Source of the DNA: a virus
Taxonomy: Duplodnaviria > Heunggongvirae > Uroviricota > Caudoviricetes
Virus record (IMG/VR): IMGVR_UViG_2563366907_000012
DNA: 14,397 nt
Direction: 5' to 3' (one strand)
The position numbers and the translations under genes were made by a program. Below, in pieces: positions 1 through 14,397 of this stretch. Under the pieces are notes generated by a model. It saw only the letters and a list, made by a program, of their open reading frames with translations. It had not been told where the DNA came from and made no database searches. Numbering within the stretch: position 1 is the stretch's first letter; the number at the start of each line of letters is the position of its first letter.

Positions 1-582
1 AATGGCGACACCACGCCCACGGCAATCCTTACAGGCGGTGGAAACCTCACCCTTTCCGCCACACTCCGGACAGGCAACTTTTACCACCTCCCTGACTTTT
101 TTCCATTCTTCCCAGTAAGACGGATACACACCTTTCGTACACTTTGCCCATACCGGCGGCTTACCATCCGGATACTGGACCTTGTTTGTAAAAACTACGC
201 TTTCAATAAATTTTTCCCCATAGCAACAAGGGCACTGCTTTTTACTCGCTGCGCTGCGGGCATAATCCTCAAAAGCGTACGAAGCCATAATGCGCATCAC
301 TACCGGTTTTATTTCTGCCGGAAGTTTTCTCAACGCCGCCACACGATCGCACCGACTGAGTGCATAATCTGCCAGTAATTCTGTTGCCCGCACCCTGTCA
401 TTCATACTGATGCCCATTTTCCCCAGGAACGCAGAAAAACCCATCTCAGCCCGATTCTGTGTCATGCCCTGCGCGGCCATCACATCAGTGATACTCAGCG
501 CATCTTTTGACGTTGAGGCCGATGCATCGGTCAGGCCAGGGGATTTTGGGGAGTAGTATTTCGGTAAATCTTCCAGTTTCAT
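1..582 (-). CDS. Phage late-gene antitermination protein Q (5' part; C-terminus runs off the window start)
   Basis: ATG at 582..580, open frame to position 1 (194 codons, no stop; hand-translated). Contains CPCC and CPECGG...CKDCRG zinc-finger-like motifs and sits directly downstream of rusA, as in lambdoid nin-Q modules. Not in the ORF track because it has no in-window stop. Confidence 0.6.
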   Translation of the reverse strand, partial: MKLEDLPKYYSPKSPGLTDASASTSKDALSITDVMAAQGMTQNRAEMGFSAFLGKMGISMNDRVRATELLADYALSRCDRVAALRKLPAEIKPVVMRIMASYAFEDYARSAASKKQCPCCYGEKFIESVVFTNKVQYPDGKPPVWAKCTKGVYPSYWEEWKKVREVVKVACPECGGKGEVSTACKDCRGRGVAI

Positions 583-597
583 TTTTTGACCTGCCCT

Positions 598-954
598 TCA
601 AGCATTATGGGGTAAATCTTCACCCCCCAGACGTCCACCAGATACTGGCTGACCACGAACGATATTGATTTCATCAAACTGCTCATCGTCCATTAGCAAC
701 CCCGCATGCGTCAGCGCATCCAGCGGTGCTTTCAGGATATTGTCCAGGTCGCGACGACGCTTATCCGGTGGCTCTGCAATCACCTTTATCGCCAGCCTTC
801 CGGACAGGCTTAATTTCAGCCGCTGCTGGCGAACAATAAGCGCCACAGCCCGGCGATAACGCTTTCCCTCCTCCGAGATAAAATATGTGCTGCCACGGCG
901 TCGCCAGTAAGTGTTCACCGTCGGCGGGTAAGGTAAAACCAAATCTATGAGCAT
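598..954 (-). CDS. rusA: RusA-family Holliday junction resolvase
   Basis: 118 aa; N-terminus LVLPYPPTVNTYWRRR and DKRRRDLDNILKAPLDALTHAG match the recalled RusA catalytic core (DxRRRDLDN). Stop is 15 nt upstream of the Q start. Confidence 0.8.
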   Translation of the reverse strand: MLIDLVLPYPPTVNTYWRRRGSTYFISEEGKRYRRAVALIVRQQRLKLSLSGRLAIKVIAEPPDKRRRDLDNILKAPLDALTHAGLLMDDEQFDEINIVRGQPVSGGRLGGEDLPHNA

Positions 955-966
955 CAGTCACCTCTT

Positions 967-2013
967 TTACCCAAGCACGCCAGTTGCAAAGGCGTGATCA
1001 AGAAAACGAAAAATTAAATCAACCTGAGAACCATGCTTTTCTTCGAACGCCAGCGGATCCGCATGAAGCTCGTTGTGATGCTCCCGACACAGCGGTAGCG
1101 TGAAAATATCGTGAGATTTTGTCCCCATTCCGCCCTGACCATGACCAATCAGGTGATGGGGATCGTCGGCTGGCTTACCACAACACGCACACGGCTGTGT
1201 CTTCACCCAGCGTGTGTATTTCTCGTTAACCCAGCGGCGACGTTTAGGTCGTTTCATGAAAGATTCCGGAGACTCAGGATCAACGGCAATGCTGACCACC
1301 GTCTTTTCCTGTGGCGGGTTTTGCTGGTGGGCGTGAGGCAGCGGCGCAATATTTTTTGTGCGCTGTTTCAGTATGCTGGTGGCGGTCTGCTCTCCCGGTA
1401 CGATGTCGCTTTCACGGTACATTGAGCGGATTTTTTCCGCACGCAACCCCAGCGAACGACGTAATACCGCTTCCGGTAGCGCGTCCGCCACCTGATTGCG
1501 GACCGCCCACCAGGATAATTCAGCCAGCGATAATTCCCGTTCCTGCGAGCCATTCATTGCATGGCGTATGACGTCAATCATCCATGCAAACAGGTTTTGG
1601 TGAGCAAGTTGCCCGAGTGATTCGGAGGTCTGGTCGCGCAGCTGGTTGTCGCAGTGCCAGCACAACACCATTGCGCCGGTACCATAACGGTGAATGACGG
1701 TTTCACTGTGGTGATAATCGCCGTGTGGCCACTGGCAGGATTTAACATGGCGCAGTAACCAGTCAGACAATGCGCCAGCGCCACCAGCAGCACGAATCAC
1801 TCGTTCGTCGCTGAAAAATGGCAGTAATGATTTATCCTCCGCCAGCGGCTGGCGAACGGCAGGAACGACCCCGGACGGCAGATTACGCATGCTTTTCGGT
1901 TCCGGCTCCACCAGTACCCGGGTATTGTGGAATACCGGCATGGATTCACGGCCCGGCTTAACGATCACCAGCCCGAGTTCCGGTACCAGAACAGGTCGAA
2001 GTAATACCCGCAC
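967..2013 (-). CDS. DUF968-type prophage protein with C-terminal HNH-like (His-Me finger) motif, YdfU-like
   Basis: 348-codon ORF. C-terminus CACCGKPADDPHHLIGHGQGG...CREHHNELH has the Cys/His spacing of an HNH nuclease motif. Same position as ydfU between hok and Q in Qin-like prophages. Annotated start is GTG; true start uncertain (internal ATG at MPVFHN). Confidence 0.65.
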   Translation of the reverse strand: MRVLLRPVLVPELGLVIVKPGRESMPVFHNTRVLVEPEPKSMRNLPSGVVPAVRQPLAEDKSLLPFFSDERVIRAAGGAGALSDWLLRHVKSCQWPHGDYHHSETVIHRYGTGAMVLCWHCDNQLRDQTSESLGQLAHQNLFAWMIDVIRHAMNGSQERELSLAELSWWAVRNQVADALPEAVLRRSLGLRAEKIRSMYRESDIVPGEQTATSILKQRTKNIAPLPHAHQQNPPQEKTVVSIAVDPESPESFMKRPKRRRWVNEKYTRWVKTQPCACCGKPADDPHHLIGHGQGGMGTKSHDIFTLPLCREHHNELHADPLAFEEKHGSQVDLIFRFLDHAFATGVLG

Positions 2014-2014
2014 G

Positions 2015-2287
2015 TTACCTCCAGATGCGTTGCTGGAATGTGCGGGACGGACGCGGTGGGCGTTCGGAGTAAGGAAGCCTGACGGAGATTATCCAGTGAC
2101 GATAATCGAGGCTGAGGGCTTTCTTAATCTCGTATCCGCGTCTGCGGTAGTTATGAATTAGCCATTCGGCCTGTTCTTCAGTACATGGTGGGTGTTGGTA
2201 CCAGTCGGTTTTAAATGCGTGTGAACGCCGCCCATGCCGGATGGCAAGGTCGGTATCAGAATTGTGAAATTTGGTTTTGTGCGCCAT
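2015..2287 (-). CDS. Hypothetical small protein (position of rem in Qin-type prophages)
   Basis: 90-aa ORF with ATG start. Ends 1 nt before the GTG start of the DUF968 ORF in a different frame. Weak Shine-Dalgarno; could instead be the 5' part of a frameshifted DUF968 gene. Confidence 0.35.
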   Translation of the reverse strand: MAHKTKFHNSDTDLAIRHGRRSHAFKTDWYQHPPCTEEQAEWLIHNYRRRGYEIKKALSLDYRHWIISVRLPYSERPPRPSRTFQQRIWR

Positions 2288-2359
2288 CTGTTTTCTCTGC
2301 TGGCGCAGCAGGTGTCAGGTGTTCAGGCTGACGTGCGAATTGTAAACCAGAATGCCAGA

Positions 2360-2400
2360 AAAAAACAAAACCCGCCGAACCGGGTTAAGTGCGGGTGCGT
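2360..2400 (-). terminator. Putative 3' hairpin plus U-tract ending the hok transcript
   Basis: On the minus strand, a GC stem (CCCGC ... GCGGG) is followed by TTTTGTTTTTT, about 55 nt past the hok stop. Stem is imperfect and loop long. Confidence 0.35.
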
Positions 2401-2454
2401 TGAGGATGCCTGACACATCAGAGGTGGCGAGGGATTTCTCCCCCGCCAGGTCTC

Positions 2455-2610
2455 TTACTCCTCAGGTTCGTAAGCTGTGAAGACAGCGACCTCCGTCTGG
2501 CCGGTTCGGAGTCGTACCTCGCAGAGGTCTTTCCTCGTTACCAGTGCCGTCACTATGACGGTTAAACAGATGACGATCAGGGCGATTAACATCGCCTTTT
2601 GCTGCTTCAT
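2455..2610 (-). CDS. hokD: Hok-family type I toxin (HokD/RelF-like membrane peptide)
   Basis: Hand-translated as MKQQKAMLIALIVICLTVIVTALVTRKDLCEVRLRTGQTEVAVFTAYEPEE (51 aa), near-identical to recalled HokD. Below the ORF-track length cutoff. Confidence 0.9.
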   Translation of the reverse strand: MKQQKAMLIALIVICLTVIVTALVTRKDLCEVRLRTGQTEVAVFTAYEPEE

Positions 2611-2666
2611 AGCCTGCTTCTCCTTGACCTTTCGGTCCGTAAGAGGCTAATCTCTATGTGTCGCAT
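2607..2666 (-). CDS. Short leader ORF (mok-like) translationally coupled to hok
   Basis: ATG at 2666..2664 encodes MRHIEISLLRTERSRRSRL; its TGA overlaps the hok ATG (ATGA). The start lies in an inverted repeat TCTATG-CGACA-CATAGA. Much shorter than plasmid R1 mok, so tentative. Confidence 0.35.
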   Translation of the reverse strand: MRHIEISLLRTERSRRSRL

Positions 2667-2720
2667 AGATATGGCCTCAGATTAATGTTAAGCGTCTTGC
2701 AGGACGCGTAATGTTAACTG
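2624..2720 (+). ncRNA. Putative Sok-like antisense RNA with promoter, antisense to the hok mRNA leader
   Basis: TTGACC at 2624..2629 and TAATCT about 18 bp downstream on the plus strand, inside the hok 5' region and pointing away. Downstream hairpin GCGTC-TTGCAG-GACGC (2692..2707) is flanked by direct repeats TAATGTTAA (2683..2691, 2709..2717). Boundaries approximate. Confidence 0.3.
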
Positions 2721-2868
2721 GGGCTTTTCTCTATCTGCCTTTTGGTGTTCATGCCTGAGACAGATAGCCTCAAGCACCCGCAGTCATTCTACTTAACTAA
2801 GATTTCCCCGCAAACCGTTTTTGTCCGGCACAGTAAATATCCAACTAAACCAATGGCGTTCGCTGTAT

Positions 2869-3048
2869 TTACCGCCAGTATTCAATGCACATGACCGCCA
2901 TGAACACCCCTAAAAAAAGGGCATTTATATGTCCAAACATTAATATCAAAACATCAACTTTTTCCATATACCTTGCTGTGAAGATGATGGGCATACATGA
3001 TGCGAACAACCAGAACGCAACAAACAAAAACTGCAATGCGTTTTTCAT
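2869..3048 (-). CDS. Small hydrophobic (two predicted TM segments) protein
   Basis: The 72-aa ORF is trimmed to the internal ATG at 3048, which has GGGGG 4 nt upstream. Product MKNALQFLFVAFWLFASCMPIIF... is strongly hydrophobic. Confidence 0.45.
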   Translation of the reverse strand: MKNALQFLFVAFWLFASCMPIIFTARYMEKVDVLILMFGHINALFLGVFMAVMCIEYWR

Positions 3049-3218
3049 TATTCCCCCTACAATCAATGTGCAATAACATTTAAACACACCTCAATTTAGC
3101 CGGACATATAAATATCTAAACCAGAAAAAATCACTTACATAGCGTTACAAACTCTTTAGTCTAAATATTCATCGTAAAACATTCCCCATACTTATCAGCC
3201 CGTTCTGCGCCAGGTAGC

Positions 3219-3533
3219 TCATTGCCTTATCTGGGAATCTGTAATCAGGTTTCCGGATGCTGGTGGATTTTCGCGTTTTAGTTGTTCATAAAAGTGCACA
3301 GCTTTAACCAGTTCTTCTGATGTCACCGGAACTGGCGGGGCAGCGAATAAGGCCTGAATTTCATAGTTCGGCCTGTCGTTGCAATCCTCTTTTGTCGGTA
3401 CATATTTCCAGTCACCAACCCACAGATTCTCCTGAAAGTCCGTAACGCCTTTTTTCACGTAGCGATATCGCCATGCAACTGGTTTTGCCTGCCCTGCCGT
3501 TTCATGCCCTTCCTGATAATTAATCTCGCTCAT
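3219..3533 (-). CDS. Hypothetical phage protein (104 aa) with shared MSEINYQ N-terminal module
   Basis: ATG overlaps the stop of the upstream acidic ORF (ATGA). First 7 codons and flanking nucleotides are near-identical to the start of the ORF at 4932. Confidence 0.55.
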   Translation of the reverse strand: MSEINYQEGHETAGQAKPVAWRYRYVKKGVTDFQENLWVGDWKYVPTKEDCNDRPNYEIQALFAAPPVPVTSEELVKAVHFYEQLKRENPPASGNLITDSQIRQ

Positions 3534-3706
3534 TCATCGCCCCACTCATCACAATATGCTTCGACCGGAGTTTTTCCTGCTTCATAATCATCACGCCATG
3601 CTTCAGCATCAGCAGCACTGCCACCACGTAACTCTGCATAGTCCATTAACAGTTCATGCCATGCTTCAAAACTGACGTTGTATTTAGTTGAACCAAAATC
3701 AGCCAT
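3530..3706 (-). CDS. Small highly acidic protein (58 aa)
   Basis: Hand-translated as MADFGSTKYNVSFEAWHELLMDYAELRGGSAADAEAWRDDYEAGKTPVEAYCDEWGDE. Start overlaps the stop of the preceding ORF (ATGGCTGA) and its stop overlaps the next start. Below the ORF-track cutoff. Confidence 0.5.
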   Translation of the reverse strand: MADFGSTKYNVSFEAWHELLMDYAELRGGSAADAEAWRDDYEAGKTPVEAYCDEWGDE

Positions 3707-3881
3707 TTTGCTCTTCCTCTTCGTCTTTTATTTCGTGATATGAGTAATTGCAGTAGTTAAAGAAAATATCTTTTGCTTCGTCATGTATTTCATCAGGCGT
3801 CGCATCATCATCCACTTCGAATTCATCCTCGAAATCTCCACCGGCTATTCCCGTTTCAATAATTATTTTAAACTTTCGCAT
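3699..3881 (-). CDS. Small highly acidic protein (60 aa)
   Basis: MRKFKIIIETGIAGGDFEDEFEVDDDATPDEIHDEAKDIFFNYCNYSYHEIKDEEEEQNG, about one third Asp/Glu. AGGAGG lies upstream, separated from the ATG by a hairpin. Confidence 0.55.
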   Translation of the reverse strand: MRKFKIIIETGIAGGDFEDEFEVDDDATPDEIHDEAKDIFFNYCNYSYHEIKDEEEEQNG

Positions 3882-3888
3882 TTAACTA

Positions 3889-3910
3889 CCGCCCTTTCGG
3901 GCGGCCTCCT
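3889..3910 (-). promoter_or_regulatory. Shine-Dalgarno plus GNRA-tetraloop hairpin in the translation initiation region of the 60-aa acidic ORF
   Basis: mRNA reads AGGAGG-CCGCCC-GAAA-GGGCGG-UAGUUAA-AUG: a perfect 6-bp GC stem between SD and start codon. Could also serve as a stabiliser or partial terminator for the upstream gene. Confidence 0.5.
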
Positions 3911-3974
3911 GATGTTCTGAGGGTGCAGAAATCCCTCCGGTTAAGGATTAAATTTTTAACAGAGCTAAATTTAA

Positions 3975-4331
3975 TTATTCAGTTCTGGATTTTGTCGCCC
4001 TGCGTATCCGCGCTTTCGCGTTACGCTCAATCTGAATTAGCTTTTCTATATTTTTTCGCCTTTCCCGCTCCTCCTGACGCAAGAGCCTTACATCATCTGC
4101 CAGTCTGGTTTCTCTTTTCGCCACAGAGAGCATCCAGTCAAATGGTTCCACAACTGCACCGCAGATTTTACAGCGGACCTGACGCTCTTTTTCGTCAACC
4201 CGGACAGAGGCGTGATGACAATATGGTCTTTCCGATGGCTCATAAAGAAAATTAACCTGATTACGAGGGTCATCCTCTTTTACCGGAAATAAAACGATAT
4301 TGCTTAACTCATCCTCTGGTTTTATTTCCAT
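3975..4331 (-). CDS. Hypothetical protein with Cys/His zinc-ribbon-like motif and basic coiled-coil tail (118 aa)
   Basis: Trimmed to the ATG at 4331, which has AAGGAGAGGAG upstream. Contains CHH...CKICG and an Arg/Glu-rich C-terminus. Confidence 0.6.
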   Translation of the reverse strand: MEIKPEDELSNIVLFPVKEDDPRNQVNFLYEPSERPYCHHASVRVDEKERQVRCKICGAVVEPFDWMLSVAKRETRLADDVRLLRQEERERRKNIEKLIQIERNAKARIRRATKSRTE

Positions 4332-4932
4332 GCTCCTCTCCTTTGATGCGAATGCCAGCGACGCGTAATGCGTGTTCCAGGTCAATCAGGTAAAGCCAAC
4401 TGCCATTTTCTTTAGGTATCATGACATGTCGCTCATCTGCATTTATCGGGTGTCCATATCGAAGGTCGTAGCGAGTCGGTAATTGAACTTCCCGCGCTTC
4501 CAGTTCAGCAATACGCTTGCACCCATCAGAGATAACTCCCTCGTAATACTCGCGCTGCTCGTTGAGTTTTGATTTTGCTGCTTCAAGCTCAACGAGCAGC
4601 TTCCCAACCGTAAGCGCAATATCCTCGTTCTCCTGGTCGCGGCGTTTGATGTATTGCTGGTTTCTTTCCTGTTCATCCAGCAGTGCCAGCACGGTAGCCG
4701 GGTTAGCCTCTGCTATGAACTCAGCGTTTGCATAAGCCTGAGCATCTGTTTCAATCAGGCAGTTAACATGACGTTCCGCAATCACGCCACCGGGTTCTCC
4801 TTTCCATTTTTGACAAACAAAAACTCCTGTTAAATTGCCGTGTTGGTTAACAGATGTATGCCCTACGATGTAGCTTCCTTTAGTTGCTTTCTCTGCCTTT
4901 TCACGCAGTACCTGATAGTTAATCTCGCTCAT
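4309..4932 (-). CDS. Ead/Ea22-like coiled-coil prophage protein (tentative family call)
   Basis: Trimmed to MSEINYQ at 4932, overlapping the stop of the upstream small ORF. About 207 aa with a central coiled-coil-like segment. Family assignment is from memory. Confidence 0.55.
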   Translation of the reverse strand: MSEINYQVLREKAEKATKGSYIVGHTSVNQHGNLTGVFVCQKWKGEPGGVIAERHVNCLIETDAQAYANAEFIAEANPATVLALLDEQERNQQYIKRRDQENEDIALTVGKLLVELEAAKSKLNEQREYYEGVISDGCKRIAELEAREVQLPTRYDLRYGHPINADERHVMIPKENGSWLYLIDLEHALRVAGIRIKGEEHGNKTRG

Positions 4933-5107
4933 TTTTCTCTTCATTCCGGTATACAAGAATTACAACGTCACCTCTGCTAATTACGCGAGCTGGATCCCCT
5001 GGTTCCATGCTGTCAATCCCGAAGGCTTCGAAAAATGCATCCATTGCCTTCTGGCGTTGCTCCTGCTTACGGCGTTTATTCCATTTTTGAACAACAGTGA
5101 CAGCCAT
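4919..5107 (-). CDS. Hypothetical small protein (62 aa)
   Basis: Soluble-looking product (KAMDAFFEAFGIDSMEPGD...). Stop overlaps the MSEINYQ start. Competes with an overlapping frame at 4981..5199 that starts GTG behind a GGAGGTG SD and encodes a hydrophobic N-terminus. Confidence 0.4.
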   Translation of the reverse strand: MAVTVVQKWNKRRKQEQRQKAMDAFFEAFGIDSMEPGDPARVISRGDVVILVYRNEEKNERD

Positions 5108-5188
5108 CGTCCGCTGCAGAACATGATGTAGAAATAACCAAGAAGTGCCAGGCCGGTGTTCAGGGCCATATCAATCGTTATCGCCGGG

Positions 5189-5491
5189 TCAATATTCACT
5201 GCCCACCTCCTGAAAAATCACCGCATGGCCCAGTTTCTCCGCCAGTGCCAGCTCAGCCCTTGCACCTGCCGACTGCTGCCAGCCTTTCAGCATGTAAACC
5301 GCATCCACGCAACGGAGCATTGCCATGCAAATATCCATGTAGTGTGGTTGAGTCAGCCCGTCCGGAAGTACTGCCGGGTTTAAAACGGTATGCCCTTCCC
5401 GTTTCAGCGCATCTTTCGCCCTGTGAAACGCCTCGCGGTTGAAATTTTCATATCCCGTCATCGGACCGGCGATATAAATCCTCACCCTCAC
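5189..5491 (-). CDS. DUF4406-like protein (nucleoside 2-deoxyribosyltransferase-like fold)
   Basis: Product starts RVRIYIAGPMTGYENFNREAFHRAKDALKREGHTV, as recalled for DUF4406. GTG start with AGGAGGG upstream; overlaps the preceding stop as GTGA. Confidence 0.6.
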   Translation of the reverse strand: MRVRIYIAGPMTGYENFNREAFHRAKDALKREGHTVLNPAVLPDGLTQPHYMDICMAMLRCVDAVYMLKGWQQSAGARAELALAEKLGHAVIFQEVGSEY

Positions 5492-5742
5492 TCCTGAACC
5501 CTCCTGTCGAAATAAACGTAGTTATTCACTGCGCCCAACTTCATCCCAAACTTTTCGGCAATTTCCCGTCGGGGTACGCCACGCTGATGCAGTTGCCGCG
5601 CCAGCTCAATATCACGCTGTGAATATTTTGCCGACGGGTGAAAATCACCCCGTAAAATCATGCTGATACCCAGTTCCCGCGCTTTCGTCCTGACGGCTGA
5701 CTCACTACGACCAATCAGATAACCGATGCTTTCGACTCTCAT
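5488..5742 (-). CDS. Small helix-turn-helix protein (84 aa)
   Basis: Internal ATG at 5742 chosen over the 134-aa version, which would overlap the upstream gene by about 90 nt. Contains HTH-like segments (SESAVRTKARELGIS; RREIAEKFGMKLGAVNNYVY). Confidence 0.45.
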   Translation of the reverse strand: MRVESIGYLIGRSESAVRTKARELGISMILRGDFHPSAKYSQRDIELARQLHQRGVPRREIAEKFGMKLGAVNNYVYFDRRVQE

Positions 5743-5801
5743 CGTTCCCGCACACTGCCGGAGTATCAGGATTTCAGCCCAGCGCCACTTCTTCCAGCCA
5801 C

Positions 5802-6518
5802 TCACCGCTGCTGCTCTCTGGTGGCGGTAATATCCCGGAGAATATCCCTGTGTTTGTTCAGTTCCCGCAGCGCAGCACAGACTCGCTCCCACTTCTGGAC
5901 ATCACTTTTCGCCCGGCGCAGCTCGCGGTTAGCCACATGCAGCGATGGTAGAATCAGGTCATCTGCTTTCATTTCGGTGATCGATGGCTGTAACCTCACA
6001 ATGTCTTCCACGATTTCTGTTTTCATTTCTTCCTGTGCCATCATTTCCTGTACTGGTAACGCAACACCTGCTGGCTGAGGAAAGGCTTTACCATCGGTTT
6101 CCGCTACGGATGCAGCTTCCGGCTCTGCCGGTAAATCAGCGCCCGGTATGCAGTAACGAAATTTACCGCCCTGATTCACGCGAATCAGACGCCCTTTGCT
6201 GATTGCCATGGCCAGCGATGAATTCGCCCGGCGCGAGGTAATCCCGAACATCAGTGCCAGCTCATCCGCCGTTTGTGGGCCATGTTGTTCAATCGCCTCA
6301 GTCAGCATTTGCGCTGTCACTTTCGGTACCGGTGACACCGGTTCACTTTCACCAGCCTGAATCAGCCACCACATCGAACCCTTGTTATCCGCTTCACCGC
6401 GGCGCTTCAGTTTCCACAGTTCGTTGACCGCATCTTCACGGCTGATTCCAAGGCGGGCCGCCACTACCTGTGAAGAGGCTCTTTTCAGTGCTTTCAGTGC
6501 GTCAAATACGGTTTCCAT
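5802..6518 (-). CDS. Hypothetical prophage protein with two winged-helix-like repeats and a C-terminal coiled coil (238 aa)
   Basis: ATG with GGAGG 7 nt upstream. Two similar segments ([25 protein letters not shown]; [28 protein letters not shown]). Lies just downstream of the DnaC-like gene. Confidence 0.65.
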
Positions 6519-6539
6519 TAATATTTCCTCCGGACAAAA

Positions 6540-7286
6540 TTACTTCACAACCCTCATATTGCTGACATTTGGACGCCAGCTATCCCAGTTAAACGTCACC
6601 CATCGACCACCGTTCATGGTCATGCGGTCCATAATCCTCTCACCAAGAAGCGTACTCATTGCGGCATGATTCAGGTTTGTTAACATCCCGACACTGCACA
6701 GTGATGCTGTCCGGCGATCAATTATCTGGTGCAATACCACCTGCTCGTTTTTCGTCTCCCGCTGAACGCCTATTTCATCCAGGACCAGCAAATCAACCCC
6801 GCAAAGCTCCTGTAAAAATTTTTCCCCGGATTTGCCGTTGTCGTAGCTGTCATGCAACACGCTCATGACGTCAGACACGGTGACGATAATCACGCTGCGC
6901 CCCTTCACCATCAGCCGGTTGCCCATCGCCGCTGCAAGGTGATTTTTCCCGGTGCCGGTTTTACCGCTGAACACAAAATTCGTGCACCCGGTCATCAGTT
7001 CGTCAGCTATGGATTTGGCCTGGCTCAGCGCGTATTTTTGCCCGTCGTTCTGCACCTGATAATTTGCAAACGAGCATTTGCTGTGCAGAGGCTGGATGCC
7101 CGAACGATTCAGGATTTTTTCCACCCGCAACTGGCGATTCTGGCGGTTAATCTCCTCGCTGCGTTTTCGTCCTTCAGCAAGTTGCCATTCCCGCCACTCC
7201 TCCACCGTCCGGTACGGTGGAACCGACCCCTGTGGTGCAAGTCTGCGAATACGTTCAAGAACCCCAACTGCCGCAATGTTTTTCAT
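6540..7286 (-). CDS. DnaC/IstB-like AAA+ helicase loader (replication protein)
   Basis: Walker A FSGKTGTGKNHLAAA and Walker B DLLVLDEIG; 248 aa; directly follows the O-like initiator. Confidence 0.85.
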   Translation of the reverse strand: MKNIAAVGVLERIRRLAPQGSVPPYRTVEEWREWQLAEGRKRSEEINRQNRQLRVEKILNRSGIQPLHSKCSFANYQVQNDGQKYALSQAKSIADELMTGCTNFVFSGKTGTGKNHLAAAMGNRLMVKGRSVIIVTVSDVMSVLHDSYDNGKSGEKFLQELCGVDLLVLDEIGVQRETKNEQVVLHQIIDRRTASLCSVGMLTNLNHAAMSTLLGERIMDRMTMNGGRWVTFNWDSWRPNVSNMRVVK

Positions 7287-7292
7287 GACACG

Positions 7293-8255
7293 TCACCCCC
7301 TGAATCCCGGCGGTATTTCAGTGTCCGGTTCAGAAATGTGATTCACGCAACGCTGCGCAGGCGAACGCCCCAGGCGGATAACCAGTTCATCCCATTTTTC
7401 CCGGAGTTTTGCCGGACTCATGATGTTTTTTACCCAGAACGAATCCCGCTGGAGACGCTCAAACATTTCACAAATTTGTCTGTGAGTTCTGCCATCCAGC
7501 ATCCGCATTGTGCGAACGTCATTGGCCCATGCTGTCCAGTTGGGTTCTTTCGGTCTAGTGATCTCGCCATCATAGCTGGCCGCCTGCTCGTAAAGACTCA
7601 CGATTCGTCCCCAGATCCACTGTGCGCACACCAAATCTTCCTGACTTCCCCACTGGCGTTTTTTCGCACTGAACACAACCGCGTCAGGGTGTCGGGTTAA
7701 AAAATCCTGTTCAGCCGTCTGCGGGTCCGGTTGCGAAGCGTCCGGACAAGAAGATCTTTTATCTGACGGATCAGGTTTTAATACTGACGGATCGGGGTCA
7801 ATCATCGCCCCCCTAATCGGCAGTTTTTTATCAACAGTTGATCCATCAAAATTTGACGGGTCAACCGTTGAGGGGTCAATATTTGACGGGTCAACTGTTA
7901 ACGGGTCATTTTTTGCCGGGCTAATTTTTCTTTTCGGTTTATATGACTCACGCGCCGCCGCCGCAGCTGCTTCGAGTTTTTCCACATTAAGTCGATAGAT
8001 ATTGCTTACATTACGCCCACCGACCTTACGCTCTTCCTTCGTCAGCCAGCCCTCTTTCGCCAGTTCTGCAATAGCCGATTTCACTGTGGATTCACTTCTT
8101 GCACCGATCTGACGCCGGATAGTTTCAATGGCAGGCCATGACACGCCCTCGTCATTGCTGTAGTCTGCAAGACGGGCCATAACCGCCACCCTGGATAAGA
8201 TCATGCCGGTGAAGGCGCACCCTTCCCAGACAAGACCATGAAGCTTGCTGCTCAT
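7293..8255 (-). CDS. Replication initiator, lambda O-like (HTH N-terminal domain, internal iterons)
   Basis: Trimmed to the ATG at 8255 (GGGGG SD; the track's 8270 start is GTG). N-terminal winged-helix domain; central DPSxx pentapeptide repeats encoded by DNA iterons. Confidence 0.8.
   Translation of the reverse strand: MSSKLHGLVWEGCAFTGMILSRVAVMARLADYSNDEGVSWPAIETIRRQIGARSESTVKSAIAELAKEGWLTKEERKVGGRNVSNIYRLNVEKLEAAAAAARESYKPKRKISPAKNDPLTVDPSNIDPSTVDPSNFDGSTVDKKLPIRGAMIDPDPSVLKPDPSDKRSSCPDASQPDPQTAEQDFLTRHPDAVVFSAKKRQWGSQEDLVCAQWIWGRIVSLYEQAASYDGEITRPKEPNWTAWANDVRTMRMLDGRTHRQICEMFERLQRDSFWVKNIMSPAKLREKWDELVIRLGRSPAQRCVNHISEPDTEIPPGFRG
7828..7924. repeat. Iteron array (putative phage origin) inside the O-like gene
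   Basis: Four tandem 15-bp units with core GGGTCA(A/T) starting at 7858, 7873, 7888 and 7903. TCAAC-N-GTTGA/GTTAA recurs every 30 bp (7831, 7861, 7891). A T-rich tract follows at 7906..7935. Confidence 0.6.
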
Positions 8256-8277
8256 AAAACCCCCGAACACCGTGCTT

Positions 8278-8703
8278 TTAGTGCATCACCACAGCATTCC
8301 CTGCCGGGCCGCCGCGATTCATCTGGTCATACAAAACAACCGCTGACGCAACAAAATCATCGACATCCTTCACCAGCCGATCCCTCCGTTCGACGATCTC
8401 ACGGTAATATTCAGAACTGTGGCTGCGCATACGGGCCACCAGCAGAGGCGGCATTGCCTTTTCGATCGCCGGTAACAGAGCCTGCATTTTTTCAACAGCA
8501 TCAGGGGTGTCTTTATCCAGCCAACGGAAAATTTTCTGGGTATTACGGGCCAGGGCTTCCGGATGGCTGTCGTCATACAGTTCCGGGAACGTCATTCCCA
8601 GCTCGAAATACGCTTTGGTAATTTTCGCAGCCGGTACTTTTTCGCCGTCCGGATGCGCCCAGACATTCATCGCCATGCGGATGTGTTCATGCTTGATTTT
8701 CAT
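8278..8703 (-). CDS. YdaT-family protein (cII-position regulator/toxin-like)
   Basis: Begins MKIKHEHI as recalled for Rac YdaT. 141 aa; start overlaps the cro-like stop (ATGA), matching ydaS-ydaT order. Confidence 0.65.
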   Translation of the reverse strand: MKIKHEHIRMAMNVWAHPDGEKVPAAKITKAYFELGMTFPELYDDSHPEALARNTQKIFRWLDKDTPDAVEKMQALLPAIEKAMPPLLVARMRSHSSEYYREIVERRDRLVKDVDDFVASAVVLYDQMNRGGPAGNAVVMH

Positions 8704-8915
8704 GAATCATTCTTTCCTTCGTTCGAGGTGCTATCCTGCTTCTTGTAAAGTTCTGGGTTGTATTTCAATTCACCGTTAGTAATTTCATCCAGTTCCATTG
8801 CGCGAAGTTTGGGAATAACTGCTTTCCACCGCACAACAGCCACATGTGAAATTCCAAGAGCCTCAGCTACTAGTCGCTTTTTTTTGAAATAGCGCAGAAC
8901 ATCATCTTTGAACAT
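8700..8915 (-). CDS. Cro-like DNA-binding protein (DicC/YdaS-type)
   Basis: 71 aa, divergent from the repressor, AGGAGAG SD 5 nt upstream. Central segment LVAEALGISHVAVVRWKAVIP fits a YdaS/Cro-type HTH. Confidence 0.7.
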   Translation of the reverse strand: MFKDDVLRYFKKKRLVAEALGISHVAVVRWKAVIPKLRAMELDEITNGELKYNPELYKKQDSTSNEGKNDS

Positions 8916-8944
8916 AAAACTCTCCTGTTATTTCGAGCAGAAGG

Positions 8945-9006
8945 GTAACAATAGTTACATAACAATGTCAACCATAGCAACATCACTTGGTAGTAACATT
9001 GGTTAC
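8945..9006. promoter_or_regulatory. Divergent immunity-region operators: two GTAAC-N4-GTTAC palindromes
   Basis: GTAACAATAGTTAC at 8945..8958 and GTAACATTGGTTAC at 8993..9006. The second abuts the repressor ATG at 9007, implying a leaderless or near-leaderless repressor transcript. Confidence 0.55.
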
Positions 9007-9681
9007 ATGAAAAACACTATCAGCGAACGTATTCGGAATCGTCGAAAAGACGTTGGATTAACCCAACAGCAGGTTGCGAAAGCAATCGGCATATCTCGTG
9101 TATCCGTAACAAAATGGGAAAATGGCTCTTCAAAACCTGACGGTGAGAATTTGTATCTACTGTCAAAATTGCTTTCCAAATCTCCTGAATGGATTCTTTA
9201 TGGAAAGGACTGTCACGATAAAACCGATGATCTGCGTCTGAATCAGTACCCTTACATTAGTGACAACATCGCCCGGTTGCCCGTTTTAACGTGGGAACAG
9301 GCTGGTTATTGGGATATGAGTTGTCCAGTAACCAAGATTCCTGGTATTAATAACTGGGTTGATGTCATGACAAAAACCGCTGAAAACTCTTTTTTATTGC
9401 ATGTTGAGGGAGATGCGATGACAAACTCTAACGGCCTCCCAACCATCCCCGACGGATCTACCGTGCTGATCACACCATGCTCAAGTAACATTAGAGAACT
9501 GGTGGGAAAAATAATCTTAATCCAATTGGAAGGAACGCCAAACGTAACACTAAAAAAAGTTGCGATTGACGGACCAAACATCTATTTGTTGTCACTGAAT
9601 CCGCTTTACAAACCCATCGAACTGAATGGTGGTTACACCATTAAAGGTAAAGTTTCACAAATACATCAATACTTAGACTGA
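9007..9681 (+). CDS. CI/C2-type prophage repressor (N-terminal XRE HTH, C-terminal S24 LexA-like domain with Ala at the catalytic Ser position)
   Basis: MKNTISERIRNRRKDVGLTQQQVAKAIGISRVSVTKWENG aligns with the recalled P22 C2 N-terminus. C-terminal domain has VEGDAM where LexA/CI have GxSM, with the VTLKKV Lys retained. Upstream TTG (8908) and ATG (8965) starts rejected. Confidence 0.85.
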   Translation: MKNTISERIRNRRKDVGLTQQQVAKAIGISRVSVTKWENGSSKPDGENLYLLSKLLSKSPEWILYGKDCHDKTDDLRLNQYPYISDNIARLPVLTWEQAGYWDMSCPVTKIPGINNWVDVMTKTAENSFLLHVEGDAMTNSNGLPTIPDGSTVLITPCSSNIRELVGKIILIQLEGTPNVTLKKVAIDGPNIYLLSLNPLYKPIELNGGYTIKGKVSQIHQYLD

Positions 9682-9686
9682 GTCAG

Positions 9687-9711
9687 AACCCGCATTCATT
9701 GCGGGTTTTTT
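9687..9711 (+). terminator. Rho-independent terminator after the repressor gene
   Basis: ACCCGCA-TTCAT-TGCGGGT stem-loop followed by TTTTTT, 6 nt after the stop codon. Confidence 0.7.
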
Positions 9712-9743
9712 ATGCCCTCAAATGTACCTTTTGCAACATTGTA

Positions 9744-9770
9744 TTGACTCGAAAGGTAACTCTTGTTACC
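9744..9770 (+). promoter_or_regulatory. Putative PL-like promoter/operator for the dicB-type operon
   Basis: TTGACT at 9744..9749 followed by a third operator-type palindrome GGTAAC-TCTT-GTTACC (9755..9770). The -10 element is not clear. Confidence 0.45.
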
Positions 9771-9953
9771 TTAACAACATACCAACCCACACCGCCCCAC
9801 AGAACGCAGGGAAATACTTCGAGTTACCCGGCAGTGGTCAGGGGTTAAGTAGCCAGCCCGAGGCGTAAGAACATGACGGCAGGGTTCAACTTTAATAACT
9901 ATGCAGCAGGTTTTTGTTCCGCTACCCCGGCGTTAAGGGGAAATGAGGTCAGC

Positions 9954-10109
9954 ATGGATACTATCGATCTTGGCAACAGCGAATCTCTGGTATGTGGCGT
10001 GTTCCCCAACCAGGACGGTACGTTCACCGCGATGACGTATACCAAAAGCAAAACGTTTAAAACCGAAAATGGTGCCCGTCGCTGGCTGGAAAGAAACTCA
10101 GGTGAGTGA
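9954..10109 (+). CDS. ydfA: YdfA-like small protein (51 aa)
   Basis: ATG with GAGG 5 nt upstream; MDTIDLGNSESLVCGVFPNQDGTFTAMTYTKSKTFKTENGARRWLERNSGE. Length and position match ydfA of the Qin dicB operon. Upstream extension of the 78-aa ORF rejected. Confidence 0.7.
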   Translation: MDTIDLGNSESLVCGVFPNQDGTFTAMTYTKSKTFKTENGARRWLERNSGE

Positions 10110-10110
10110 T

Positions 10111-10239
10111 ATGGATTTTGACACAATCATGGAAAAGGCTTACGAAGAATACTTCGAAGGCCTTGCCGAAGGCGAAGAAGCTCACAGCTTCAACGAATTT
10201 AAACAGGCGCTTTCCAGTTCGGCAAAATCTAACGGCTGA
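10111..10239 (+). CDS. ydfB: YdfB-like small acidic protein (42 aa)
   Basis: ATG 1 nt after the ydfA stop, AGGTGAG SD. MDFDTIMEKAYEEYFEGLAEGEEAHSFNEFKQALSSSAKSNG. Below the ORF-track cutoff. Confidence 0.7.
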   Translation: MDFDTIMEKAYEEYFEGLAEGEEAHSFNEFKQALSSSAKSNG

Positions 10240-10268
10240 TAAGCGAAACAGCACCGCGAGGAATCAGT

Positions 10269-10487
10269 ATGCAGAAACGAGAACCCGTCATCATCGCGCC
10301 AGACTATACCGATGATGAACTTTATGAGTGGATGCGCCAGAAAATTAATGCAGCGCAGGATCTGAAATGGGCTAATGAAGTCAGGGCTAAGCAGGCTGAA
10401 AATCTGTCCGCTCTGGAGCAGGATATCACCAATCTGGAAAAAGCAGCGGCATTAAGCATTGCCAGAATGATTACATACCCGCGTTAG
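10269..10487 (+). CDS. ydfC: YdfC-like protein (72 aa)
   Basis: ATG with GAGGA SD; length and position match ydfC upstream of dicF. Confidence 0.7.
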   Translation: MQKREPVIIAPDYTDDELYEWMRQKINAAQDLKWANEVRAKQAENLSALEQDITNLEKAAALSIARMITYPR

Positions 10488-10827
10488 TAGCTAACCAACG
10501 AAGCTAAGGTTAGTAATTAAGGAGTTCTCCACGGGTGAGGTGGAGTGCGTGCGCCGGACACGGGTGCGCATCCGGCACTGACAGTTTACTGAAAGGATAT
10601 TTCCCTGAAAAGTCAGACCATAACGCGAAAGCGCACGGCGAGGTAGCTGGTTCATAGATAGCCTGTCGTTAAATTTTCGTCGACCGTGCGCTTCCGGTTG
10701 TGGCAACCCGCGAAATGGCGCGGCGGTAAGTATGGCGGGGTTATTCCTTCCCCGTTGAGGACACCGGGTTGTCAGGTTGACCATACGCTTAAGTGACAAC
10801 CCCGCTGCAACGCCCTCTGTTATCAAT

Positions 10828-10880
10828 TTTCTGGTGACGTTTGGCGGTATCAGTTTTACTCCGTGACTGCTCTGCCGCCC
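10828..10880 (+). ncRNA. dicF: DicF small regulatory RNA (ftsZ-targeting antisense sRNA)
   Basis: The 53 nt TTTCTGGTGACGTTTGGCGGTATCAGTTTTACTCCGTGACTGCTCTGCCGCCC match the DicF sequence as I recall it, followed by TTTTT, between ydfC and dicB. Confidence 0.85.
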
Positions 10881-11054
10881 TTTTTAAAGTGAATTTTGTG
10901 ATGCGGTGAATGCGGCTAAGCGCACGCGGAACAGTTAAAACCAAAAACAGTGTTATGGGTGGATTCTCTGTATCCGGCGTTAATTGTTAACTGGTTAACG
11001 TCACCTGGAGGCACCAGGCACTGCATCACAAAATTCATTGTTGAGGACGCGATA

Positions 11055-11243
11055 ATGAAAACGTTATTACCAAACGTTAATACGTCTGAAGGTTGTTTTG
11101 AAATTGGTGTCACTATCAGTAACCCTGTATTTACTGAAGATGCCATTAACAAGAGAAAACAAGAACGGGAGCTATTAAATAAAATATGCATTGTTTCAAT
11201 GCTGGCTCGTTTACGTCTGATGCCAAAAGGATGTGCACAATGA
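11055..11243 (+). CDS. dicB: DicB cell-division inhibitor (62 aa)
   Basis: MKTLLPNVNTSEGCFEIGVTISNPVFTEDAINKRKQERELLNKICIVSMLARLRLMPKGCAQ matches recalled DicB; GAGGA SD 7 nt upstream. Confidence 0.85.
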   Translation: MKTLLPNVNTSEGCFEIGVTISNPVFTEDAINKRKQERELLNKICIVSMLARLRLMPKGCAQ

Positions 11244-11431
11244 ATTCAGCATTTGTGCTTGTTCTGACAGTTTTTCTTGTTTCCGGAGAGCCAGTTGATA
11301 TTGCAGTCAGTGTTCACAGGACAATGCAGGAGTGTATGACTGCAGCAACCGAACAGAAAATTCCCGGTAACTGTTACCCGGTCGATAAAGTTATTCACCA
11401 GGATAATATCGAAATCCCGGCAGGTCTTTAA
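11240..11431 (+). CDS. ydfD: YdfD-like small membrane/lysis protein (63 aa)
   Basis: ATG overlaps the dicB stop (ATGA). MNSAFVLVLTVFLVSGEPVDIAVSVHRTMQECMTAATEQKIPGNCYPVDKVIHQDNIEIPAGL with a hydrophobic N-terminus. Confidence 0.8.
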   Translation: MNSAFVLVLTVFLVSGEPVDIAVSVHRTMQECMTAATEQKIPGNCYPVDKVIHQDNIEIPAGL

Positions 11432-11523
11432 AACAGTTCCGTAATAAATATCCGGTTTCATTCTTATATGCCAGCAATGGCAGGGATTTGTTCATCCTTA
11501 AATCTGTCATGAGGTTAAAACAA

Positions 11524-14397
11524 ATGAGTAAAGTCTTTATTTGCGCCGCTATTCCTGACGAACTGGCAACAAGGGAAGAAGGCGCTGTGGCTGTAGCCAC
11601 AGCCATTGAAGCTGGCGACGAACGCCGTGCTCGAGCAAAATTTCACTGGCAATTCCTGGAACATTATCCGGCTGCTCAGGACTGCGCTTATAAATTTATT
11701 GTCTGCGAGGATAAACCTGGCATACCCCGCCCTGCCCTCGATTCATGGGATGCTGAATATATGCAGGAAAACCGCTGGGATGAGGAGTCTGCTTCTTTTG
11801 TCCCGGTTGAGACTGAATCCGATCCGATGAACGTCACTTTTGACAAGCTGGCCCCTGAAGTACAGAACGCTGTCATGGTTAAGTTCGACACATGTGAAAA
11901 CATCACCGTTGATATGGTTATTAGCGCACAGGAATTGTTGCAGGAAGACATGGCAACATTCGACGGACATATCGTTGAAGCGTTGATGAAAATGCCAGAA
12001 GTTAACGCCATGTATCCGGAGCTTAAGTTGCACGCCATTGGGTGGGTTAAGCATAAATGTATTCCTGGTGCTAAATGGCCCGAAATTCAGGCAGAGATGC
12101 GCATCTGGAAAAAACGTCGCGAAGGTGAACGCAAGGAAACCGGAAAATACACGTCTGTTGTTGATCTCGCCCGCGCCAGAGCCAATCAACAGTACACTGA
12201 AAATTCAACAGGAAAAATCAGCCCGGTCATTGCTGCCATTCATCGCGAATACAAGCAGACATGGAAAACACTGGATGACGAACTGGCCTACGCTCTCTGG
12301 CCTGGTGATGTGGATGCCGGAAACATTGACGGCAGCATCCATCGCTGGGCAAAAAAAGAAGTTATCGACAACGACCGCGAAGACTGGAAGCGTATCTCGG
12401 CATCAATGCGCAAACAGCCTGATGCCCTTCGCTACGACCGCCAAACTATTTTTGGCCTTGTCCGTGAGCGTCCGATCGACATTCACAAAGATCCCGTAGC
12501 ACTGAACAAATATATCTGCGAATACCTGACGACAAAGGGCGTGTTTGAGAATGAAGAAACAGACCTGGGCACTGTTGATGTTCTCCAGTCATCAGAAACA
12601 CAAACTGATGCAGTGGAAACTGAGGTATCTGATATCCCAAAAAATGAAACCGCGCCGGAAGCTGAACCATCTGTAGAGCGTGAGGGGCCGTTCTATTTCC
12701 TCTTCGCAGATAAGGACGGAGAAAAATACGGTCGCGCAAACAAACTCTCTGGTCTGGATAAGGCACTGGCTGCTGGCGCCACTGAAATCACAAAAGAAGA
12801 ATATTTTGCCCGAAAAAATGGCACATACACGGGCTTACCGCAAAATGTAGATACCGCTGAAGATTCAGAACAACCAGAGCCGATAAAAGTTACCGCTGAC
12901 GAAGTAAACAAAATTATGCAGGCAGCCAATATCAGCCAGCCTGACGCCGATAAGTTGCTTGCTGCATCACGTGGTGAATTTGTTGAAGGGATTAGTGACC
13001 CGAATGATCCGAAATGGGTTAAGGGGCTCCAGACCCGCGATTCTGTGAACCAGAACCAGCATGAATCGGAACGGAACTACCAAAAAGCGGAACAAAACAG
13101 TCCAAATGCGTTACAAAACGAGCCAGAAACGAAACAGCCTGAACCAGTAGCGCAACAGGAAGTGGAAAAAGTCTGCACCGCCTGCGGTCAGACCGGCGGC
13201 GGCAACTGCCCTGATTGTGGCGCGGTGATGGGCGACGCAACATACCAAGAAACATTCGATGAAGAGTATCAGGTTGAAGTTCAGGAAGATGATCCGGAGG
13301 AAATGGAAGGCGCTGAACATCCACACAAGGAGAACACTGGCGGCAATCAGCATCACGATAGCGATAATGAAACTGGCGAGACGGCAGATCACCCAATTAA
13401 GGTGAACGGTCATCACGAAATCACATCCACCAGCAGGACGTGTGACCATCTAATGATCGACCTTGAAACCATGGGAAAAAATCCTGATGCCCCGATCATC
13501 TCAATAGGTGCAATATTTTTCGATCCGCAAACCGGAGATATGGGACCGGAATTTAGTAAGACTATCGATCTGGAAACTGCTGGCGGAGTCATTGATCGGG
13601 ACACCATTAAATGGTGGCTTAAGCAATCACGCGAAGCGCAATCTGCCATTATGACCGATGAAATCCCGTTAGATGATGCACTGTTACAATTGCGAGAATT
13701 TATCGACGAAAACTCCGGTGAATTTTTTGTTCAGGTTTGGGGAAATGGAGCCAACTTCGACAACACGATTTTGCGCCGTTCATACGAACGGCAGGGGATC
13801 CCCTGCCCGTGGCGTTACTACAACGATCGCGATGTACGCACAATCGTTGAGCTGGGGAAAGCCATAGACTTCGATGCCAGAACGGCTATTCCATTCGAAG
13901 GTGAGCGCCATAATGCGCTTGATGACGCCCGTTACTGGGAACTGGAAAAAGATGAAGTGATAAGCCCACTGCCGGTTTATGCCTCAACCTTTGAAGGCTG
14001 GGACTCCCCTGAACGTAGTGCCTTCCCACTGCAACTGTTTGGTTTCCATTACAAATCCCGTACGCACTCGACCTACGGCAACATTGATGTCCTGAAGGCA
14101 GCCTGCCGTCAGGAAGTGTGGATCAACCCTATTGACGCACAGAAACGTGGGATTGCCAACGGCGATATGGTGCGGGTGTTTAACCATCGTGGCGAAGTTC
14201 GGCTACCAGCCAAAGTGACACCACGCATTCTCCCTGGGGTTAGCGCTATGGGCCAGGGAGCCTGGCACGAGGCCAATATGTCTGGCGATAAAATCGACCA
14301 CGGCGGCTGTGTGAATACGCTAACCACTCTGCGCCCTTCACCACTGGCGAAGGGAAACCCGCAGCACACTAATCTGGTCGAGATCGAAAAAATATAA
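11524..14397 (+). CDS. Large chimeric ORF: YdfE/RecE-like prophage protein (zinc ribbon plus DEDDh 3'-5' exonuclease domain) fused in frame to the C-terminus of a DmsA/YnfE/YnfF-family molybdoenzyme
   Basis: ATG at 11524 with GAGGT SD (track start 11488 is TTG). Features in order: CTACGQTGGGNCPDCG zinc ribbon (~13174..13221), acidic/His-rich linker, Exo I DLETMG, Exo II GNGANFD, Exo III HNALDDA (~13441..13930). From ~14010 on, FPLQLFGFHYKSRTHSTYGN ... GDMVRVFNHRGEV ... PSPLAKGNPQHTNLVEIEKI reads as a molybdopterin dinucleotide-binding domain. Stop is at the last base of the window. Confidence 0.7.
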   Translation: MSKVFICAAIPDELATREEGAVAVATAIEAGDERRARAKFHWQFLEHYPAAQDCAYKFIVCEDKPGIPRPALDSWDAEYMQENRWDEESASFVPVETESDPMNVTFDKLAPEVQNAVMVKFDTCENITVDMVISAQELLQEDMATFDGHIVEALMKMPEVNAMYPELKLHAIGWVKHKCIPGAKWPEIQAEMRIWKKRREGERKETGKYTSVVDLARARANQQYTENSTGKISPVIAAIHREYKQTWKTLDDELAYALWPGDVDAGNIDGSIHRWAKKEVIDNDREDWKRISASMRKQPDALRYDRQTIFGLVRERPIDIHKDPVALNKYICEYLTTKGVFENEETDLGTVDVLQSSETQTDAVETEVSDIPKNETAPEAEPSVEREGPFYFLFADKDGEKYGRANKLSGLDKALAAGATEITKEEYFARKNGTYTGLPQNVDTAEDSEQPEPIKVTADEVNKIMQAANISQPDADKLLAASRGEFVEGISDPNDPKWVKGLQTRDSVNQNQHESERNYQKAEQNSPNALQNEPETKQPEPVAQQEVEKVCTACGQTGGGNCPDCGAVMGDATYQETFDEEYQVEVQEDDPEEMEGAEHPHKENTGGNQHHDSDNETGETADHPIKVNGHHEITSTSRTCDHLMIDLETMGKNPDAPIISIGAIFFDPQTGDMGPEFSKTIDLETAGGVIDRDTIKWWLKQSREAQSAIMTDEIPLDDALLQLREFIDENSGEFFVQVWGNGANFDNTILRRSYERQGIPCPWRYYNDRDVRTIVELGKAIDFDARTAIPFEGERHNALDDARYWELEKDEVISPLPVYASTFEGWDSPERSAFPLQLFGFHYKSRTHSTYGNIDVLKAACRQEVWINPIDAQKRGIANGDMVRVFNHRGEVRLPAKVTPRILPGVSAMGQGAWHEANMSGDKIDHGGCVNTLTTLRPSPLAKGNPQHTNLVEIEKI

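Follow-up and report, generated by a model that had tools for sequence, protein, structure and literature searches.

An in-frame fusion of a prophage exonuclease gene with the 3′ end of ynfE, probably a deletion scar, in one Escherichia coli strain

Prophages that lose their integrase gene or an attachment (att) site can become 'grounded' in the bacterial chromosome, and Qin is counted among those that took this route (Ramisetty & Sudhakari 2019, PMC6379469; Bobay et al. 2014, cited there). Most matches to Qin carry a mutated intQ, a likely cause of their grounding, and the early-left gene context of this prophage is highly variable (PMC6379469). In Escherichia coli K-12 and in Qin-type remnants, the integrase end has the layout ydfABC-dicF-dicB-ydfD-exo/ydfE-xis-int and lies beside rspB. 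Here, we describe a stretch of prophage DNA of 14,397 nucleotides (IMG/VR record IMGVR_UViG_2563366907_000012, hereafter the window) that shares with Qin the early-left genes ydfA, ydfB, ydfC, DicF, dicB, ydfD, and exo, the same orientation toward the host gene ynfE, and the same kind of decay at the integrase (int) end. It differs from Qin in that the int end appears wholly deleted, seven genes into the host and ending in ynfE, which yields a chimeric open reading frame (ORF). We conclude, with a confidence of about 90%, that this ORF is the scar of one real chromosomal deletion of ~9.0 kb in a single strain of E. coli, which is CFT073-like (phylogroup B2-type).

In principle, nothing distinguishes the locus from grounded prophages generally; its one notable point is that a host gene has been joined on in frame. 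In the cryptic lambdoid prophage Rac, the sbcA deletions likewise alter the context of an exonuclease gene, but they lie upstream and switch recE on, and some alleles create fusion proteins. The deletion described here lies at the 3′ end, leaving the promoter context of exo unchanged with no evidence of activation, and RecE belongs to a different nuclease family from the DEDDh enzyme encoded by exo. Loss of speG in Shigella is convergent, often driven by insertion sequences (ISs), and aids survival in macrophages, and the ynfB-speG locus is entirely gone from S. sonnei (PMC3213128). Both genes would also be gone from the present locus, but as a side effect of a single deletion in a single strain of E. 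coli.

The chimeric ORF runs without interruption from the ATG at 11524 to the TAA at 14395-14397 and encodes 957 amino acids. Pfam identifies a Rv2179c-like 3′-5′ exonuclease domain (PF16473) at residues 642-804, scoring 209.9 bits against a gathering cut-off of 27, and a Molydop_binding domain (PF01568) at residues 836-949, scoring 95.2 bits; the YdfE_N and YdfE_C families are also assigned to the ORF in precomputed annotation. The DEDDh motifs are found as DLETMG (residues 646-651), GNGANFD (740-746), and HNALDDA (796-802), followed by WELEKDEV..., and from residue 805 on the ORF reads WELEKDEVISPLPVY.... Motifs and profile score agree with the first-pass annotation, which was made from the letters of the window and had recognized a phage DEDDh exonuclease in the upstream part. 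It had also noted a change of character between 13930 and 14020 and had taken the last ~140 codons for the C-terminus of a DmsA/YnfE/YnfF-type reductase. The change is real, but it is a sharp join between bases 13935 and 13936 and not a zone; the family was named correctly, but the host part comprises 153 codons and comes from ynfE specifically. Nor is this segment phage sequence, the outcome that the annotation had named as fatal to a fusion: the last 153 residues align to YnfE and to dimethyl sulfoxide (DMSO) and trimethylamine N-oxide (TMAO) reductases, not to phage exonucleases.

Both parents are evident at the DNA level. Bases 11439-13935 are about 99.8-99.9% identical to intact genes for an 823-residue exonuclease, present in ~3,490 of 5,426 complete E. 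coli genomes, and bases 13935-14397 match the end of the ynfE gene (3′ side) of CFT073, Nissle 1917, ABU 83972, and other strains at 100%. The exo module occupies a median of two places per genome; for ynfE, a single-copy gene in E. coli, the median is one place. A 998-bp query spanning the junction matches exonuclease genes at 99.4-99.8% up to 13935-13941, and in none of these complete genomes is there a place where it attains at least 80% coverage. Exact junction strings gave 0 matches in metagenome contigs and in genome contigs, the latter a weak test with one genome per species. A search of 318 C-terminal residues against 5.8 billion protein clusters returned no exonuclease plus Molydop_binding protein covering both halves among the best 120 matches, all of which align to the exonuclease part alone (coverage at most 52%), and an exact-protein look-up places the chimera on one contig alone. 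Available homologues show an identity of 97% or more.

A three-way alignment resolves the junction to the base. The exo gene reads ...GATGACGCCCGTTAC followed by CTGGCAAAA, ynfE reads ...GAAATTGCCCGTACC followed by TGGGAACTGG, and the window reads ...GATGACGCCCGTTAC followed by TGGGAACTGG, with base 13935 (C) common to both parents. Over the 9 nucleotides (nt) up to the join, the window sequence GCCCGTTAC and the ynfE sequence GCCCGTACC agree in register at 7 of 9 positions (GCCCGTnnC); the chance of at least 7 of 9 at a random pair of exo and ynfE positions is 0.0018 (0.18%). An imperfect match as short as this is typical of illegitimate recombination. The join cuts the exo ORF 57 nt short of its usual stop and falls on a codon boundary (804 exo codons, then 153 of ynfE); since exo and ynfE are also co-oriented, one ORF of 957 codons results.

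Reference layouts show what should lie between the two halves. In NT1F10 and in the DH5alpha record, the intact end reads dicB-ydfD-exo-xis-int and continues with rspB-rspA-ynfA-ynfB-speG-ynfC-ynfD-ynfE-ynfF, with exo and ynfE sharing one strand. The breakpoints lie 9,024 bp apart on the DH5alpha record, a size that presumes an ancestor with a Qin-type xis-int module. They bracket xis, int, and the int-rspB spacer of the reference layouts, and the int-side attachment site would have been lost here with int and xis. Because the layout is colinear and co-oriented, and the window matches both ends of the 9,024-bp interval, a single deletion accounts for the junction. Intact prophages with this exo module always have the order exo-xis-int-att, at three different attachment sites. 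The related prophage of GN02050, the best full-window match, has it at tRNA-Ser/mtfA with another integrase, and strain 2D has it at ompW with a 99.9% exo copy, indicating that the missing module is the expected one. Neither of these two prophages was accepted as the intact ancestor, and they confirm the layout only.

The first-pass annotation had anticipated much of this arrangement. It had remarked on the lack of int and xis at the boundary between exo and host DNA, and no integrase or excisionase gene occurs from ydfD to ynfM on the source scaffold. Its suggestion of a single deletion that removed the int end with adjoining host genes and joined two co-oriented frames agrees with the reference layouts, and its placing of the exo/int end of Qin about eight genes from ynfE is correct, with seven host genes between int and ynfE. 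Mapping of endpoints and microhomology on a ydfE-intQ-ynfE layout, which it had proposed, yields the in-register match and the interval given above. Its parallel with Qin holds for the early-left genes of the dicB operon but not for the prophage as a whole, which is not K-12 Qin itself.

Taken together, the junction would be explained by illegitimate recombination at the short imperfect microhomology GCCCGTnnC, with nt 2412 of exo joined to about nt 1965 of ynfE. On the phage side, the event would have removed the last 57 coding nt (19 codons) and the stop of exo, together with xis, int, and the right attachment site (attR). On the host side, it would have removed rspB, rspA, ynfA, ynfB, speG, ynfC, ynfD, the ynfE promoter, and ynfE codons 1-655. 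The coordinates of the junction, its two halves, and the other features of the window are collected in Table 1.

Table 1. Features of the window, with positions, strand, and supporting evidence
Feature	Position	Strand	Basis or remark
Chimeric ORF, Exo(1-804)::YnfE(656-808)	11524..14397	+	957 codons + stop
Prophage DEDDh exonuclease portion (YdfE_N, YdfE_C, Rv2179c-like)	11524..13935	+	DNA identity, Pfam
3′ end of host ynfE, codons 656-808 + stop, Molydop_binding (domain IV) barrel only	13936..14397	+	100% DNA identity, Pfam
Deletion junction	13927..13936	+	join between 13935 and 13936, three-way alignment
41-mer marking the deletion			CTTGATGACGCCCGTTACTGGGAACTGGAAAAAGATGAAGT
ydfD	11240-11431	+	early-left operon
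dicB, cell-division inhibitor gene	11055-11243	+	early-left operon
DicF small RNA	10829-10880	+	Rfam RF00039, 76.7 bits, full length
ydfC	10269-10487	+	early-left (dicB-type) operon
ydfB	10111-10239	+	early-left (dicB-type) operon
ydfA	9873-10109	+	early-left (dicB-type) operon
CI-like repressor, helix-turn-helix + S24 peptidase	8965-9681	+	Pfam HTH_3, Peptidase_S24
Cro-like gene	8700-8915	-	Pfam P22_Cro
Ead/Ea22-like ORF, 207 amino acids, intact	4309-4932	-	gene call
sok antisense RNA, adjoins hokD	2608-2779	-	Rfam RF01794, 106.7 bits
hokD-type type I toxin gene	2455-2610	-	Pfam HOK_GEF

The window has a match of 100% on scaffold KB732540.1 (968 kb), which belongs to assembly GCA_000351205.1. 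On this scaffold, the chimeric ORF is followed in normal order by ynfF (807 amino acids, with all three domains), ynfG, ynfH, dmsD, clcB, bioD, mlc, and ynfL. The whole window and the 10 kb to its right are free of N, as are more than 13.9 kb to the left of the join, which places the join within a contig rather than at a gap in the scaffold.

The complete genome of ECAMP047 (NZ_CP196265.1), a near-clonal host with the same prophage, provides an instructive comparison. Window positions 1-11438 are matched there at 99.6%. Over the 10 kb that follow the window, identity is 99.99% to ECAMP047 (one mismatch) and 99.97% to CFT073. The left end of the ECAMP047 prophage abuts a truncated ydfJ, and full sets of lambdoid tail, head, terminase, and lysis genes are present. 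As in the window strain, xis, int, and attR have been lost by deletion into host DNA, but the endpoints are others: the sequence runs 7 nt past the ydfD stop straight into mid-rspB (L003 23433-23441; window 11431-11439). The exo gene is wholly lost together with xis and int, rspA to ynfE are kept, with an intact ynfE ~4.6 kb beyond the prophage end, and there is no fusion ORF. Neither arrangement can be derived from the other, which suggests that an ancestor whose int end was still intact gave rise to both through independent deletions. The window strain and ECAMP047 would thus form a small natural experiment, in which the int end of one prophage was lost twice in one lineage.

The window shows 46 differences from the ECAMP047 prophage, which lie mostly in 1315-2650 and 10119-11126, with none in 2648-7991. 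Such a patchy distribution suggests small recombination patches from other lambdoid prophages rather than uniform divergence.

Two other origins of the junction have to be weighed against a deletion. An assembler could have misjoined exo to ynfE, in which case the intervening 9 kb would still be in the chromosome. Exo-type modules are multi-copy in many E. coli (median two places), which invites misassembly, the draft scaffold has N gaps in the same prophage, and none of the other genomes, protein records, or metagenome contigs examined has the junction. However, 7 of 9 nt is all that the two sides have in common, much too short a match for a misjoin by a k-mer or overlap assembler, and because ynfE is single-copy there is no repeat on that side. 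Both sides also stand in the order and orientation of a simple deletion within sequence that is N-free for more than 13.9 kb on the left and at least 10 kb on the right, and ECAMP047 shows that deletions of this prophage end occur. We regard an assembly artefact as very unlikely. Alternatively, a phage whose attP carried a replacement gene end might have integrated site-specifically into the 3′ end of ynfE. Many phages integrate at the ends of tRNA or protein genes, and a host-gene 3′ end beside prophage DNA is the usual signature of such events. In this case, however, no integrase adjoins the junction, the join lies inside the exo ORF, 57 nt before the stop, rather than at an att core, and the ynfE part, at 100% identity, is that of the host allele and not a divergent copy carried by a phage. 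In addition, the 5′ 1,965 nt of ynfE and seven genes are missing where they would be expected, and in ECAMP047 this prophage is flanked by a truncated ydfJ on its left and by mid-rspB on its right, with ynfE intact further on. The absence of an integrase, the position of the join in exo, and the host-identical ynfE part led us to exclude integration, the probability of which is practically negligible. An IS-mediated deletion was likewise rejected, as no IS is present at the join.

Several points nevertheless weigh against a real ~9.0-kb deletion. The junction is known from one draft assembly only, at the level of the assembly rather than of reads, and the scaffold is unfinished, with N gaps in the late region of the prophage from 2-3 nt left of window base 1. 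The absence of the deleted genes is judged at this locus, the size of the deletion depends on the presumed xis-int module, and the microhomology is imperfect, with the crossover 2 nt past the perfect 6-mer. The attachment site on the ydfJ side is inferred from ECAMP047, and the functional consequences discussed below are all inferred. With regard to the site, ydfJ/rspB is seen in Qin-type records and ECAMP047 only. The right flank of our prophage runs into ynfF-dmsD as expected for it, but the left end lies beyond the N gaps, and only in ECAMP047 is this prophage seen to abut ydfJ.

If the deletion is real, what does the fusion encode? In the exonuclease half, all five catalytic residues are retained (the DLE in DLETMG, the NFD in 740-746, and H796...D801 in HNALDDA), but the last 19 residues of the 823-residue enzyme are gone, native residues 805-823 being replaced by YnfE sequence. 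The Rv2179c-like profile spans positions 2-168 of 177 in the fusion versus 2-177 of 177 in an intact enzyme (P0003), leaving it nine C-terminal profile positions short. The chimera exceeds the Pfam gathering score and has the DxE, D, and H-x4-D motifs; it does not contain a complete DEDDh domain with the C-terminal helix that follows H-x4-D. By its motifs and profile match, it is classed as a truncated member of the Rv2179c-like exonuclease family. As this helix is partly replaced, the exonuclease activity of the chimera is uncertain. The long N-terminal part of the exonuclease, outside the Rv2179c-like match, also contains a CxxC...CxxC motif, CTACGQTGGGNCPDCG (window 13174-13221, residues 551-566), a possible zinc ribbon between acidic low-complexity stretches.

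The product of ynfE is annotated as a selenate/tellurate reductase subunit. Full-length YnfE comprises Molybdop_Fe4S4 (residues 49-108), Molybdopterin (PF00384, 111-566), and Molydop_binding (687-800) domains in Pfam, and its assembly requires a twin-arginine translocation (Tat) signal peptide and DmsD (PMC5203670). Since the fusion begins at YnfE residue 656, it has neither the Tat signal nor the Fe4S4 (FS0) domain, and it also lacks the molybdopterin oxidoreductase domain PF00384. The C-terminal Molydop_binding domain is present and can be aligned with the C-terminal ends of TMAO and DMSO reductases of solved structure (9h4t, 1eu1). With three of the four defining parts absent, the chimera is not a member of the DMSO-reductase enzyme family. 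Only the C-terminal cap domain is left, without the Tat, iron-sulfur, and molybdenum-binding parts, indicating that YnfE would be non-functional.

The loss of int, xis, and attR implies that the prophage could no longer excise and would be grounded, and the locked-in prophage, one of two outcomes foreseen by the first-pass annotation, would follow from the missing int and xis genes. Effects on expression are also predicted. The genes ynfEFGH-dmsD form an operon driven by the ynfE promoter (PMC5203670). The remaining intact ynfFGH-dmsD genes would be without this native promoter, and their transcription would depend on internal promoters or on read-through out of the early-left operon of the phage. 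A scan for consensus promoters and terminators around the fusion and in the ynfE-ynfF spacer gave no more sites than shuffled sequence. The pL promoter of lambda and the dicB operon of Qin, which is repressed by DicA, serve as analogies for the exo operon. By these analogies, the CI-like repressor, which has an S24 self-cleavage domain, is expected to shut off the operon, whose last gene is the chimera, in the lysogen. Production of the chimera would then require inactivation of the repressor, for example by SOS induction.

The fusion itself might have been selected, either as a working exonuclease with a new domain or because it placed ynfFGH-dmsD under phage or SOS control, or the loss of speG or of the excision genes might have been favoured. 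The frame is kept, all DEDDh catalytic motifs survive, and the retained piece of YnfE is a complete Pfam domain, with ynfF, ynfG, ynfH, and dmsD intact directly downstream. Furthermore, the independent loss of xis-int in two near-clonal strains fits the favoured grounding proposed in PMC6379469, and loss of speG is adaptive in Shigella (PMC3213128). On the other hand, the fusion is a singleton on one contig, and no other protein of this architecture appears among the best 120 matches. About one in three such joins is in frame by chance, which suggests that the fusion arose by accident rather than as a new protein under selection. The match to the exonuclease domain stops nine profile positions short, the YnfE fragment lacks everything required for catalysis or export, and the undiverged (100%) ynfE part points to an event so recent that selection has had no time to act on the fusion. 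We consider a selected fusion or rewiring highly improbable. The loss of speG, rspAB, and ynfA-D would be a by-product of the deleted block, and nothing indicates selection for it. A related scenario, in which grounding of this prophage is under selection and ynfFGH-dmsD and the chimeric exonuclease are expressed only on SOS or prophage induction, is quite unlikely; if true, a host respiratory operon would have been rewired under phage control. The deletion reading requires neither, and on it the feature is an ordinary, private, and recent deletion scar, an instance of strain-specific prophage decay.

The remainder of the window carries the genes expected of a lambdoid prophage. Moving upstream from the chimeric ORF, the order is ydfD, dicB, DicF, ydfC, ydfB, ydfA, the CI-like S24 repressor, Cro, YdaT, replication genes, hokD/sok, DUF968, RusA, and Q. 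Immunity, replication, early-left, Q, and lysis functions are thus represented, with Pfam matches to P22_Cro, HTH_3 and Peptidase_S24, IstB/DnaC-like, RusA, Antiterm, DicB, and holin. The whole is consistent with a lambdoid prophage with a Qin-like early-left region, probably at a ydfJ site by analogy with ECAMP047. Its immunity genes are CI(S24)/Cro and those of Qin DicA/DicC, so that a Qin-type dicB operon here sits inside a prophage with another immunity module; structural genes form a full set in ECAMP047. In ECAMP047 and GN02050, the annotation of the region that corresponds to the Ead/Ea22-like ORF shows a truncated pseudogene and, next to it in the list, a DUF4752 gene with a frameshift. 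The first N gap, beginning 2-3 nt left of window base 1, comprises 1,390 N (L008 12016-13405) and cuts the Q antiterminator gene, which encodes 194 amino acids here versus 273 for the 822-nt gene in ECAMP047. Further runs of 1,190 N (L008 14421-15610) and more than 4,079 N (L008 16969-21047) fall in the late/lysis region, between the window and the left end of the prophage.

The chimera is deposited as ELD37833.1/WP_001545546.1 with "exonuclease" as its only product name, and WP_001545546.1 is grouped into an exonuclease cluster of 23,183 members. The name and the clustering together make the fusion of phage and host sequence invisible in annotation, and near-identical fusions from other strains would stay hidden in the same cluster. 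The record adds a spurious Molydop_binding domain to the exonuclease family. WP_001545546.1 should be treated as a chimera, and the pairing of a phage exonuclease with Molydop_binding is no genuine domain architecture. Beyond this strain, the finding has little importance. It does offer a clean, base-resolved example of prophage locking, in which one microhomology-associated deletion would have taken the excision module together with 7.8 host genes. The strain itself is predicted to be without SpeG, RspAB, YnfA-D, and YnfE, which could affect its polyamine handling and selenate reduction.

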